From the UHGV virus genome UHGV-1613375: a DNA stretch of 25,893 nt. The stretch is one strand, 5' to 3'. The stretch is from a virus. Shown piece after piece: positions 1,492 through 7,745 of this stretch (the stretch's first letter is position 1; every line of letters begins with the position of its first letter). A model generated the notes under the pieces. That model did not search any database. It had not been told where the DNA came from and saw only the letters and a list, made by a program, of their open reading frames with translations. Position numbers and translations under genes: made by a program.

Positions 1492-2883
1492 ATGCTCTGT
1501 GGAGGTCTTTCTTTGCGAGACTTTATGCATAAACTGCATAAAGTTTTGCGACCAACGGGTCCAGTTGTTTCTATGGAACTGTTATTTGGACGTGAAAAAC
1601 ATGTAACCGATCTCGAATTGGCGCTTTATGCTACAGGTCGGCATGCTTTCATTTATGGTGATCGCGGAGTAGGAAAGACATCCTTAGCGCAAACTGTTGC
1701 TTTTAAGCTGCAGGAAGATGCTGAACCTATTTTGGTTGGCTGCGAGAAAGAATCCACTTTTTCAAGTGTCATGAATGACATTATTTTGCGAGGCACACCT
1801 CAGGATAAGAAAATCGATACACAGGGATGGAGCTTTGGCTTAAATGTGGCTGGAATTGGTGGTATCAATGCTGGTCAAAATCAAAAATATAATTATCCAG
1901 AACTGAAAATTGACTCAGTTTCTGCAGCCGTTCGGGCGTTGCAATTTTTAACTAAAGTTCACTCAAAGATTCCTTATATAGTTATCGATGAGTTTGACCA
2001 AATTGACTCTGATGAAGAACGACAAAAGTTTGGATCACTCATTAAACAACTTGGTGATCAGGCGTGTGAAGTAAAATTAATTTTTACGGGGATTGGTGAT
2101 TCTCTCGTTACTTTAATCGGAGGGCATAAATCAAGTGAGCGACAAATACATCAGGTACATCTCGATAGTTTACCATGGAATGGTCGTTTTCAAATAATTG
2201 ATAATGCTTTCGATGAGTTTGGCCTGACTGTCGATGATTCTGTCCGCTATAAAATTGCGGGTCTTAGTGACGGGTTCCCGAACTACATTCATCTTATTTG
2301 TGAAAAAATCCTTTTAACATGTCAAAGCTCAATACGTGAATACAGCTCTGTTGATTACAACCTTTTCATTAAAGGGTTAAATGATGCAATTGATTCAGTC
2401 TCGGAAACTTTAAGGCAAAGTTACACGGATGCAACAGAGGGACGTGATGAGTCATATAAGCATATTCTTTGGGCTATGTCCGATATGGCTGATTTGACCA
2501 GACATAAGACTCATATATCAGAATCGTACGTTAAAATTTGCAAATCGCTTGATGTAACACCTTTAGATAAATCCACGTTTGAGCGAAAGTTCAATGCATT
2601 GAAGAAACCGACATTTGGATGCATCATCATCCCTGCTTTAGGGAATCGTCCATCTTGGTTTCGATTTAGAGAAAACATGCTTCGTGGTTATATTCGAATG
2701 AGAGCGGAGCAGCATGGACTTGAGTTGGACTTCCAAAATTATCGTGTTGCTGGAGAGCATTCTGCTAGGGCTATAGGCAAATACTCTGCTTATAAACCGT
2801 TAACTAATGTTGAAGGACGAGTAGCCAAGCTAAGAGGTGATAACGACTGGCTTGACGACATAAAACCAAATCCTATTAAGTGA
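1492..2883 (+). CDS. Orc1/Cdc6-like (Arch_ATPase/AAA_16-type) P-loop NTPase with probable C-terminal winged-helix region; AT-rich cargo gene of unknown function
   Basis: SD CAGGAG at 1479-1484, 7 nt before the ATG. Walker A GDRGVGKTS (aa 56-64), Walker B YIVIDEFD (aa ~162-169), N-terminal LFGREKH motif and GLSDGFPNYIHL sensor-like motif, as in archaeal-type AAA+ ATPases (recalled family logo). Much more AT-rich than the flanking phage genes (by eye) and bracketed by terminators at 1403-1430 and 2907-2935. Confidence 0.8.
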   Translation: MLCGGLSLRDFMHKLHKVLRPTGPVVSMELLFGREKHVTDLELALYATGRHAFIYGDRGVGKTSLAQTVAFKLQEDAEPILVGCEKESTFSSVMNDIILRGTPQDKKIDTQGWSFGLNVAGIGGINAGQNQKYNYPELKIDSVSAAVRALQFLTKVHSKIPYIVIDEFDQIDSDEERQKFGSLIKQLGDQACEVKLIFTGIGDSLVTLIGGHKSSERQIHQVHLDSLPWNGRFQIIDNAFDEFGLTVDDSVRYKIAGLSDGFPNYIHLICEKILLTCQSSIREYSSVDYNLFIKGLNDAIDSVSETLRQSYTDATEGRDESYKHILWAMSDMADLTRHKTHISESYVKICKSLDVTPLDKSTFERKFNALKKPTFGCIIIPALGNRPSWFRFRENMLRGYIRMRAEQHGLELDFQNYRVAGEHSARAIGKYSAYKPLTNVEGRVAKLRGDNDWLDDIKPNPIK

Positions 2884-2979: not shown

Positions 2980-3315
2980 ATGCCTCATAACCCAAATACT
3001 TGGCCGGACTGGCTGGAGTTGTTCCAGAGCTGGTGGCGTGGAGACACCCCGCTGGGGGCAGTGATTATGTCGATCGTTATGGCTGGTTTGCGTATCGCCT
3101 ATTTTGGCGGAGGTGGTGGCTGGAAGCGAAAAACGCTCGAGATTTTGCTCTGTGGTGCTCTGACGCTGACTTTTGCATCCGCGCTTGAGTATGTCGGATG
3201 GCCTAAATCGCTTTCTGTTGCCATTGGTGGTGGCGTTGGGCTGATCGGTGTTGATGCCATTCGTGGAGCTGCAATGCGAGTAATCGGTAATAAGTTTAGT
3301 GGCTCTAAGGAGTAA
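2980..3315 (+). CDS. Holin, divergent lambda S-like, three predicted transmembrane segments
   Basis: 111 aa immediately upstream of the endolysin. Three hydrophobic segments and a charged C-terminus; the LR..Y.GG....K pattern resembles lambda S (recalled). Confidence 0.65.
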   Translation: MPHNPNTWPDWLELFQSWWRGDTPLGAVIMSIVMAGLRIAYFGGGGGWKRKTLEILLCGALTLTFASALEYVGWPKSLSVAIGGGVGLIGVDAIRGAAMRVIGNKFSGSKE

Positions 3316-3318
3316 TTT

Positions 3319-3795
3319 ATGCAGATACTAAATTCCCAGCGTAAAGCTTTCCTCGATATGGTGGCATGGTCAGAAGGAACGGATAACGGACGGCAGAAAA
3401 CCAGAAATCATGGTTATGACGTCATTGTAGGCGGAGAGCTATTTACTGATTACTCCGATCACCCTCGCAAACTTGTCACGCTAAACCCCAAACTCAAATC
3501 AACAGCCGCCGGGCGTTATCAGCTTCTTTCACGCTGGTGGGATGCTTACCGTAAACAGCTTGGTTTGAAAGACTTCTCCCCCAAAAGCCAGGACGCAGTG
3601 GCATTGCAGCAGATTAAAGAGCGTGGCGCTTTACCGATGATTGATCGCGGTGATATTCGTCAGGCTATCGACCGTTGCAGCAATATCTGGGCTTCACTGC
3701 CGGGGGCTGGTTACGGTCAGTTCGAGCATAAGGCTGACAGCCTGATTGCAAAATTTAAAGAAGCTGGCGGAACGGTCAGAGAGATGGAGGCATGA
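3319..3795 (+). CDS. R: Endolysin, lambda R-type lytic transglycosylase
   Basis: 158 aa, near-identical over most of its length to lambda R as recalled ([47 protein letters not shown]...). Confidence 0.95.
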
Positions 3796-5044: not shown

Positions 5045-5395
5045 ATGCCACCACGAACCCCAAAAGCCTGCCGTGTTCGCGGCTGCCGCAATACCACGAC
5101 TGATCCGTCAGGCTACTGCGAAAGCCACAAAAGCGAAGGCTGGAAGCAATACAAGCCAGGACAATCCCGTCATCAGCGCGGTTATGGTTCGAAATGGGAT
5201 GTTATCCGTGAACGTGTGCTCAAGCGTGACAAAGGCCTGTGTCAGTTATGTCTGCGTGCTGGTGTGGTGCGTGAGGCGAAAACCGTTGATCACATCATCC
5301 CTAAAGCGCATGGCGGCACCGATGCAGACAGTAATCTGCAGAGCCTGTGCTGGCCGTGTCATAAGGCGAAGACGGCCCGTGAACGGCTGAAGTAA
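5045..5395 (+). CDS. HNH endonuclease, terminase-associated
   Basis: 116 aa with Cys/His pairs (CRVRGC...C..H, CQLC...H.IP..HGG....NLQSLCWPCH), a classic phage HNH fold, located directly upstream of terS/terL as in HK97-like cos phages. Confidence 0.85.
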   Translation: MPPRTPKACRVRGCRNTTTDPSGYCESHKSEGWKQYKPGQSRHQRGYGSKWDVIRERVLKRDKGLCQLCLRAGVVREAKTVDHIIPKAHGGTDADSNLQSLCWPCHKAKTARERLK

Positions 5396-5421
5396 GAACC
5401 AGTTCCCACTGCCAGAGGGGA

Positions 5422-5480
5422 GGGGCGGGTCAAATCCCTGTGACCTGACGTCTTCCGGACTGCCCGCCCCATCGTTTTTT
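5422..5480 (+). other. GC-rich inverted repeat GGGGCGGG / CCCGCCCC (33-nt loop) followed by T7; candidate cos/packaging region or terminator
   Basis: GGGGCGGG at 5422-5429 pairs with CCCGCCCC at 5463-5470, followed by ATCGTTTTTTT. Lies between the HNH gene and terS, where cos sits in HK97-like phages; GGGGCGGGTC loosely resembles the lambda cohesive end GGGCGGCGACCT (recalled). Confidence 0.35.
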
Positions 5481-5520
5481 TATACCCGCGAAAAATGAAA
5501 TTTAACCAGGAGTGCCGCAT

Positions 5521-6015
5521 ATGGCTGGAACGGCGGGGCGTTCCGGGCGTCGCCCCAAGCCAACGGCGCGCAAGGCGCTGGCCGGAAACCCCGGCAAGCG
5601 AGCCCTGAATAAAGATGAACCTGTTTTTACGCCCATCAAAGGTGTTGAGCCACCGGAGTGGTTCGCTGAAGAAGATCTCCCTCTCGCCACGATCATGTGG
5701 CAACTGACAACCAAAGAACTCTGTGGTCAGGGCCTGCTGTGCGTGACTGACCTCGCGGTGCTTGAGCGGTGGTGCGTGGCCTACGAGTTCTGGCGACGTG
5801 CCGTGAAAAATATTGCCAGACAGGGCAACACCATCATCGGTGCAATGGGCGGCAGGGTCAAAAATCCGGAGCTGACCGCCAAAAAAGAACAGGAGTCCGA
5901 GATGAACAGTACGGGGGCAATGCTCGGACTCGACCCCAGCAGCCGCCAGCGTCTGATTGGCCTGGCGGGGCAGAAGAAAGCCACTAACCCGTTTCTGAAA
6001 ATCATCGAATCATGA
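5521..6015 (+). CDS. Terminase small subunit (P27-family-like)
   Basis: SD AGGAG at 5508-5512 with ATG at 5521; the track's start at 5512 is GTG. Basic N-terminus; ATGA overlap with the large-subunit start. Confidence 0.7.
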
Positions 6016-7745
6016 GCCGGAAATCTTACCCCAACGTAAATGCTGCCAATCAGTATGCCCGTGATGTCGTGCGCGGAAAGATTGTGGCCTGCCAGTTTGT
6101 GATTCAGGCCTGCCAGCGCCATCTTGATGACCTGATGGAGGAAAAAAGTAAGTTGTTTCGTTACCGCTTCGACAAGGACCTGGCTGAACGGGCCGCGAAA
6201 TTTATTCAGCTGTTGCCGCACACCAAGGGTGAGTGGGCATTCAAGAGGATGCCCATCACGCTGGAGCCGTGGCAGCTCTTTGTGATCTGCTGTGCGTTTG
6301 GCTGGGTCAATAAAGGCTCCCGGCTGCGCCGCTTCAGGGAGGTGTATACCGAAATCCCTCGTAAGAACGGCAAATCGGCAATCTCTGCCGGTGTTGCCCT
6401 GTATTGTTTTGCCTGTGATAACGAGTTTGGCGCGGAAGTGTATTCCGGTGCCACGACAGAGAAACAGGCGTGGGAAGTCTTTCGCCCGGCTCGACTGATG
6501 TGTAAACGCACACCCATGCTGACGGAAGCGTTCGGGATTGAGGTTAACGCCTCAAACATGAACCGTCCGGAGGATGGCGCGCGGTTTGAACCGCTGATCG
6601 GTAACCCCGGTGATGGTTCATCACCCCACTGTGCGGTGGTGGATGAATATCACGAGCACGCCACCGATGCGCTTTATACCACGATGCTTACCGGGATGGG
6701 GGCGCGACGTCAGCCACTGATGTGGGCTATCACCACCGCCGGATACAACATTGAGGGGCCGTGCTACGACAAACGGCGGGAAGTCATCGAGATGCTCAAC
6801 GGTTCGGTACCCAACGATGAACTGTTCGGGATCATCTATACCGTTGATGAAGGTGATGACTGGACCGACCCGCAGGTGCTGGAAAAAGCCAATCCAAATA
6901 TTGGCGTGTCGGTTTATCGCGAATTTTTGTTAAGTCAGCAGCAGCGTGCGAAAAATAACGCCCGTCTGGCAAACGTCTTTAAAACAAAACACCTCAATAT
7001 CTGGGTGTCGGCGCGTTCGGCGTATTTCAACCTGGTGAGCTGGCAGAGCTGCGAGGATAAATCATTGACCCTTGAGCAGTTCGAGGGGCAGCCGTGCATT
7101 CTGGCCTTTGACCTGGCGCGTAAGCTGGATATGAACAGCATGGCGCGACTTTATACCCGCGAGATTGACGGTAAAACGCATTACTACAGTGTGGCCCCGC
7201 GTTTCTGGGTACCGTATGACACGGTGTACAGCGTCGAGAAAAATGAAGATCGACGGACAGCCGAACGCTTTCAGAAATGGGTGGAAATGGGCGTTCTGAC
7301 CGTTACCGATGGTGCGGAGGTGGATTATCGCTACATCCTCGAGGAGGCCAAAGCGGCGAACAAAATCAGCCCGGTCAGTGAGTCACCCATCGACCCCTTC
7401 GGGGCGACCGGGTTGTCACATGACCTTGCTGATGAAGACCTGAACCCCATCACTATCATTCAGAACTACACCAACATGTCCGATCCGATGAAAGAGCTGG
7501 AAGCGGCGATTGAATCGGGGCGCTTTCATCATGACGGCAATCCCATCATGACCTGGTGTATCGGCAACGTGGTCGGCAAAACCATTCCTGGTAACGATGA
7601 TGTGGTGAAGCCTGTCAAGGAGCAGGCGGAAAACAAAATCGATGGTGCGGTTGCACTGATTATGGCGATCGGTCGGGCAATGCTCAAAGAACCCGACGAT
7701 TTCCTCTCATCTCTTGATCCGGACGATGCTCTCTTAATTCTATGA
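6012..7745 (+). CDS. Terminase large subunit
   Basis: 577 aa in canonical position after TerS; ATPase plus nuclease-sized protein with acidic motifs ([16 protein letters not shown]) consistent with terminase. Confidence 0.85.

Follow-up and report, generated by a model that had tools for sequence, protein, structure and literature searches.

The cos site of SfV-like phages is already in the literature, both in a publication on SfV and as a mapped end of SfI. When SfI virion DNA was read by run-off sequencing, comparison with the prophage revealed a 10-nt gap, 5'-TGCCCGCCCC-3', which its authors concluded to be cos (PMC3636060), and an identical cos is common to SfI, SfII, SfIV and SfV (PMC3851460). 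The ends of HK97 are 10-nt 3' overhangs, with gp74 stimulating cos cleavage (PMC9410871; PMC11331095), and the Burkholderia phages phi644-2 and phiE125 carry a 10-base 3' extension, 5'-CGCCCGCTTC-3' (PMC2920897). We infer that the SfI end has 3' polarity as well, because the 10 nt reported as a gap are missing from both run-off reads, which agrees with the explicit statements of a 3' overhang for HK97 and phi644-2.

Here, we analysed a 25,893-nt stretch of viral DNA (UHGV-1613375; the window), in which a 125-bp gap separates an HNH endonuclease gene from terS (5396–5520; HNH stop codon at 5393–5395, terS ATG at 5521). Very probably, this gap is the cos of a temperate SfV/SfI-type phage present as an integrated prophage, possibly a defective one, and as such it is not a new element. 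A megablast search with 5300–5620 returned SfV, SfI, SfII, SfIV, ST64B and other enterobacterial phages at 88–100% identity, and the best matches of the whole window fall in the same SfV/SfI group. SfI differs from the window at two positions within the 125-bp gap (5437 and 5471; 98% identity). SfV is 100% identical to the window from 5454 onwards, and between these two phages it is the SfI type that the window follows at 5396–5415, just after the HNH stop codon. The cos sites of SfI, SfV, SfII and SfIV occupy the same position between HNH and terS, with an identical TGCCCGCCCC and the same terminase genes; nothing of substance distinguishes them from the window, which represents a prophage copy known from sequence, with ends mapped in SfI.

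The gap contains two G/C-only arms, GGGGCGGG at 5422–5429 and its exact complement CCCGCCCC at 5463–5470, separated by 33 nt, and a run of seven T at 5475–5481. A sequence-only reading of this locus had noted the arms, their complementarity, the T run and the 125-bp gap, all of which we found again at the same coordinates, and had offered as one candidate a cos site like those flanked by HNH, TerS and TerL genes in HK97-like phages. That proposal stood as to the site and the kind of phage, but the cohesive end is found in the right arm and not in the left one, which had been loosely compared with that of lambda. The 10-nt cohesive end, TGCCCGCCCC, lies at 5461–5470 on the plus strand and includes the whole right arm; it is identical to the SfI run-off gap, occurs as a single exact copy in the window, and would form a 3' single-stranded extension. 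The SfI record ends at window position 5470 and restarts at 5471. In this prophage, the top-strand nick would fall between 5470 and 5471 and the bottom-strand nick between 5460 and 5461, positions that we infer for the present copy.

Comparison with HK97 and the Burkholderia phages points to the same arm. In an ungapped alignment anchored on the cut, at the overhang end, TGCCCGCCCC of the window and SfI, CGCCGCCAAA of HK97 and CGCCCGCTTC of phi644-2 and phiE125 occupy the same ten columns, with GAC to the left of the overhangs and a T-rich run to the right. We take the right arm to be the cut site because the SfI-mapped end is identical to it and because it shares these columns with the HK97 and phi644-2 overhangs. 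Just left of the predicted bottom-strand nick lies GGAC (5457–5460), in which A5459 and C5460 are invariant among the relatives described below and G5457 and G5458 are present in at least 90% of sequences. GAC before the overhang is also found in HK97 and in Burkholderia, Pseudomonas and Psychrobacter phages.

The genes around the gap belong to a packaging module. The HNH endonuclease gene (5045–5395, plus strand; Pfam PF01844, E=2.3e-16) encodes an accessory nuclease of this module that is 38% identical to HK97 gp74 over 65 aa (BLASTP, E=2e-10) and matches the HNH endonuclease of PDB entry 5H0M (3e-12). On the other side, terS (5521–6015, plus strand) encodes a small terminase of the P27/PF05119 family (Pfam PF05119, 1.1e-20; PHROG 83, 4e-59), 97.6–98.8% identical to the TerS of SfIV and vB_EcoM-720R4; its ribosome-binding site, read from the letters as AGGAG (5508–5512, plus strand), lies 8 nt before the ATG at 5521 and is kept in relatives. 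The large terminase gene terL (6012–7745, plus strand; Pfam TerL_ATPase and TerL_nuclease) follows, encoding the ATPase and the nuclease that cuts cos, and its product matches the crystal structure of HK97 TerL (6Z6D; phmmer against PDB, E=6.1e-25, residues 112–556). The Pfam matches thus uphold the earlier HNH–TerS–TerL gene calls. Downstream of terL are portal, S78 protease and HK97-fold capsid genes (Pfam). Upstream, on the same strand, are a Q-like antiterminator (774–1349), a 463-aa ATPase, a holin, Rz and a DUF2441 gene, together with an ORF at 3319–3792, between holin and Rz, that had no Pfam match. The gap sits between HNH and terS, where the lysis and head modules meet.

For a wider sample of relatives, viral contigs were scanned with the 21-mer at 5481–5501, yielding 120 loci whose 62 distinct 96-nt cores make up an alignment (A1). 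Invariance of the right-hand block at 5481–5501 is by construction, because most of the relatives in A1 were fetched with a 21-mer from it; outside this search pattern, the invariant bases are 5423–5425, 5433–5434, 5459–5460, 5462–5463, 5467 and 5477–5480. The spacer that separates the upstream element from the cut site (5438–5456) varies freely in A1 while its length is kept, with one extra base in 3 of 63 rows and one base fewer in a single row. Read at the level of sequence, the interval owes its non-randomness to this conservation and to its homology to mapped cos sites, not to symmetry. Across families, the ungapped cut-anchored alignment shows that three parts, held at fixed spacing, are common to HNH-dependent cos sites: a top-strand G-tract with TCAAATC or an A-rich variant behind it, then (G)GAC with a C-rich decamer, then a T-rich run with AC(N)CCGCG and an A-tract.

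HK97 shows this layout in a phage with a different TerS. As in the window, the HNH gene lies on one side of its cos and terS followed by terL on the other, and TerL and HNH are homologous to those of the window. Its G-tract/TCAAATC element ends at -35, GAC occupies -13 to -11, a C-rich 10-mer follows, and ACCCG with an A/T tract lies downstream. Unlike the window, HK97 has the overhang CGCCGCCAAA, no inverted repeat between G-tract and overhang, a non-coding stretch of ~320 bp after HNH, an ACCCG located 4 nt further from the cut, and a TerS, gp1, without detectable sequence similarity to PF05119 TerS. Judged from these features, the gap would work like the HK97 cos in its TerL, its HNH partner and its cut site, with the TerS family as the point of difference. 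The Burkholderia phages phiE125 and phi644-2 have a TerS of the same family as the window (50.6% identity). Two related phages that contain the phi644-2 overhang sequence, vB_E174 and phiBtTUL1a, have the same three modules at the same spacing as the window; their GGAC is joined to a 10-mer with 3 positions that differ from the window's 10-mer, and TCG, a T-run and CCCGCGAAA come next. The Burkholderia phages differ from the window in their beta-proteobacterial host, in GAAAAAG rather than TCAAATC after the G-tract, and in an overhang that ends in TTC rather than CCC.

The module downstream of the cut (5472–5503) comprises the T-run (5475–5481), ATACCCGCGAAAAAT (5482–5496, +12 to +26) and an A/T-rich tail, with T5477–5480 invariant outside the search pattern. 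The part from T-run through ACCCGCG to A-run (+5 to +26) is probably the TerS binding site, equivalent by analogy to lambda cosB. Burkholderia and Pseudomonas phages preserve CCCGCGAAA after the T-run, and Moraxella phages CCGCGAAA; the TerS of these phages is 46–50% identical. The minimal TerS site of HK97 spans +15 to +29, CTAACCCGATTTTTT, and includes an A-tract as well as a C:G pair, at position 21, that is essential (PMC11331095). A BLASTP comparison of the window's TerS with HK97 gp1 gave no significant match; the two belong to different PHROGs (83 and 5601), and gp1 has no PF05119 match. Since similarity to gp1 was undetected, the assignment of the predicted TerS site rests on its position, on the resemblance in ACCCG and the A/T tract, and on its co-conservation with PF05119-type TerS.

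Upstream of the cut, a conserved element at 5417–5436 consists of the G-tract GGGGAGGGGCGGG (5417–5429), inside which the left arm sits, and TCAAATC (5430–5436); G5423–5425 and A5433–5434 are invariant in the 62 relatives. In the window as in HK97, exactly 34 nt separate the end of TCAAATC from the top-strand cut, and the G-tract element is found at the same ungapped position in HK97 and in Klebsiella, Burkholderia, Pseudomonas, Moraxella and Psychrobacter phages. At five distant loci of 1.2–2.3 kb, top-strand 10-mers with at least 8 G occur at -58 to -49 from the overhang end, with one exception at -425 in Burkholderia, making the location of the G-tract essentially unique within these loci. 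A local match of the G-tract to HK97 cos scored 14, a value that 5 of 300 shuffles reached. The element accompanies the homologous TerL/HNH pair even where the TerS family differs, and a role with TerL and HNH is suggested for it because it is shared with HK97, whose TerL and HNH are homologues of those in the window while its TerS is not. We tentatively propose, as a reading that is possible rather than likely, that the G-tract and TCAAATC form a distinct cos sub-site, acting either in docking or activation of TerL/HNH or as a cosQ-like termination signal, and that together with the TerS site they would make up a compact, portable cos of ~90 bp, which certain satellite-like elements (L097 and L137, below) appear to have as well. 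In the papers that could be searched, nothing specific was found on a G-rich element of cos upstream of the cut in phages like HK97, and the definition of the upstream G-tract as a cos sub-site is the only point here that may be new. It gives the HK97 packaging field a concrete element to test.

Taken together, these features suggest how the site could be used. During lytic growth, terminase would recognise the gap site on concatemeric DNA, with TerS predicted, by analogy with HK97, to bind the downstream block at 5472–5503. TerL, aided by the HNH protein encoded just upstream, would then nick the bottom strand at 5460/5461 and the top strand at 5470/5471, producing 10-nt 3' cohesive ends with TGCCCGCCCC on the top strand. 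Packaging would proceed rightwards from terS and stop at the next cos. The least certain step concerns the G-tract/TCAAATC element 34 bp upstream, which may position or activate TerL/HNH or may signal termination in the manner of lambda cosQ. The cosQ–cosN–cosB arrangement of lambda appears to follow a similar logic, in that the cut is flanked by an upstream element and a downstream small-terminase region beside the terminase genes; the likeness is one of analogy only.

The complementarity of the two arms invites other readings. Taken alone, the 8-bp repeat is within chance expectation: a perfect 8-bp inverted repeat with a loop of 3–60 nt arises in 1575 of 20,000 (7.9%) dinucleotide-preserving shuffles of the gap, and 30 such repeats are present in the 25.9-kb window, or ~0.14 per 125 bp, of which the gap repeat is the only one made entirely of G/C. 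That the repeat is perfect and all G/C, and that a G-rich upstream tract with a C-rich cut site is a family-wide pattern, would suit a functional dyad, with the arms either bound, one half-site each, by a dimeric protein such as HNH, TerL or a host factor, or extruded as a cruciform that marks the cut; we nevertheless regard such a dyad as quite improbable. In A1, the stem together with the inner pairs of the MFE fold is paired in 83.7% of cells, compared with 82.6% after shuffling of partners (reached by 17 of 500 shuffles), the covariation score is 0.137 against 0.131 (reached by 83 of 500), and 27 of the 62 sequences break the central C:G pair and 18 the outer one, so that pair counts match shuffle expectation. 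Left and right arms from the same sequence are slightly more complementary than permuted ones (duplex energy -19.7 compared with -19.1 kcal/mol for cross pairs; 27 of 5000 permutations reach it), but this effect of 0.56 kcal/mol can be explained by linkage of sites 40 bp apart. Moreover, the overhang TGCCCGCCCC is found with the left arms GGGGCGGG, GGGGGAGG, GGGGGTAG and GGGGCGAG, the left arm GGGGCGGG is found with three overhangs, including CGCCGCCTTA and TGCCCGCCTC, and HK97 combines G9 on the left with CGCCGCCAAA on the right and has no repeat. Because the arms assort freely, show no covariation and form no repeat in HK97, the perfect repeat is a by-product in this lineage; and because both nicks flank the right arm only, the cuts are asymmetric about the dyad centre (~5446). 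The symmetric element of the sequence-only reading is hence not a kept feature, its arms varying independently among relatives: it is two unrelated cos modules, the cohesive end and the G-tract element, that are complementary by chance in this lineage. The same lack of covariation and the same broken central pair weigh against an intrinsic terminator, made of the GGGGCGGG/CCCGCCCC stem and the T7 run and insulating the packaging operon from the lysis genes instead of, or besides, serving as cos. Seven T do follow the stem, an RNA fold of -56 to +12 reaches -28.4 kcal/mol with the arms paired (z = -2.5 relative to mononucleotide shuffles), and pairing of G-tract and C-tract is predicted in several distant relatives too; we still consider a terminator improbable. 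Intrinsic terminators need a U-tract directly after a compact hairpin, and here the eight G:C pairs of the stem enclose a loop of 33 nt, with four nucleotides, ATCG (5471–5474), between the stem and the T run. A consensus terminator scan covering loops of 3–8 nt found none in the gap, and the RNA fold of the whole gap is no better than that of shuffles (z = -0.78). The T-run is reduced to T4–T6 in ST64B, Klebsiella and Burkholderia relatives while its distance to the cut is kept, as expected of an element acting at the DNA level, and the site lies within a same-strand late operon headed by a Q-like antiterminator, where a Q-modified polymerase would read through. A weak terminator may act in the lysogen, with nothing to favour it.

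Two further identities can be set against the SfV/SfI-type cos. Lambda ends are 12-nt 5' overhangs, made by terminases of different families that have no HNH partner. The left-arm region GAGGGGAGGGGCGGGTC had been likened to the lambda cohesive end, and a lambda-type cos would have it form a 5' cohesive end of 12 nt, akin to GGGCGGCGACCT, with which it has the hexamer GGGCGG in common. This likeness did not survive alignment on both strands: the best local alignment scores 12, compared with 10.3 ± 1.5 for shuffles, 51 of 300 of which reach it, and it lies outside the cohesive end. The gap shows no significant sequence similarity to lambda, whether to cosN with GGGCGGCGACCT or to the cosB region, and no Nu1/gpA-type terminase was found in place of the present one, whose TerS matches PF05119 and, at E ≤ 0.001, no further Pfam family, and whose TerL resembles that of HK97. 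With the SfI-mapped end located in the opposite arm as well, we consider a lambda-type cos extremely unlikely. Equally hard to credit is a tRNA fragment, attachment site or structured RNA around the T-loop-like GGGTCAAATCC; by sequence alone, GGTCAAATCC does resemble a tRNA T-arm, but ARAGORN detected no tRNA or tmRNA in the window, Rfam at E ≤ 10 returned nothing in 5396–5520, and the SfI paper places attP of this group downstream of int, in the interval up to gtrA (PMC3636060). These two negative searches and the location of attP elsewhere speak against this candidate.

As a discovery, the cos site in the gap matters little; its practical value lies in annotation. Of 5426 complete E. coli genomes, 1162, or about one fifth, carry the interval without annotation, and marking 5461–5470 as the cohesive end would settle where the genomes of these very common prophages truly end. 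Deposited records are a poor guide in this respect. The SfV and SfIV GenBank records start at window position 5454, 7 nt left of the SfI-mapped overhang, and the SfII record starts directly after the HNH stop codon; because the starts of the SfV, SfIV, SfI and SfII records differ, such deposited ends are non-uniform and are not to be taken as physical termini.

Some further observations concern the window itself. A 12-nt inverted repeat, 83% complementary, pairs 5465–5476 in the overhang region (CGCCCCATCGTT) with 5529–5540 in terS codons 3–7 (AACGGCGGGGCG), and is probably a by-product of Gly/Arg codons. Far upstream, the 463-aa AAA/STAND-like ATPase ORF (1492–2880, plus strand) lies between the Q-like antiterminator and the holin (2980–3312). 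The slot between antiterminator and holin in lambdoid phages often holds accessory cargo genes (morons), and this ORF may be an accessory or defence gene; its sole match in PADLOC was a weak P-loop match.

Among the relatives, several loci depart from the common arrangement. In a scaffold of Salmonella phage As1 (PQ793804, ~430–520), the 5' part of the HNH coding sequence is fused directly to CTCGAATTTTTATACCC. It lacks the 3' half of HNH, the G-tract, GGAC and the 10-nt overhang but has an intact downstream block and terS; either the cos cleavage site has been deleted, leaving a defective element, or the scaffold is an assembly artefact. In Vibrio phage H2 (~594–601), whose TerS is 47% identical, HNH abuts terS with no intergenic gap, and because this gap is absent, its cos must be elsewhere or within coding sequence. 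Two IMG/VR contigs, L097 (~2190–2290) and L137 (~745–845), contain a full cos core, from the G-tract through AAAAATGAAAT and with the overhang TGCCCGCCCC, adjoining a gene for a PerC-family activator (PF06069, 3.7e-30) and a PRiA4_ORF3-like gene. Neither terS nor terL was found within 2 kb downstream in L097 or within 1.5 kb, up to the end of the locus, in L137, and these contigs may represent a satellite carrying the cos of a helper phage. Elsewhere, three small ORFs follow cos and precede HNH and terS (cos core at ~4040–4136 of L107), or a KilA-N domain gene stands between cos and terS (cos core at ~250–346 of L092); because these orders differ, cos has no fixed place among the genes. Finally, one contig carries two HNH–cos–terS units 2.9 kb apart (3476–3571 and 6347–6442), and in the first unit terL is broken up by two opposite-strand ORFs (278 and 99 aa), a putative IS-type transposase.
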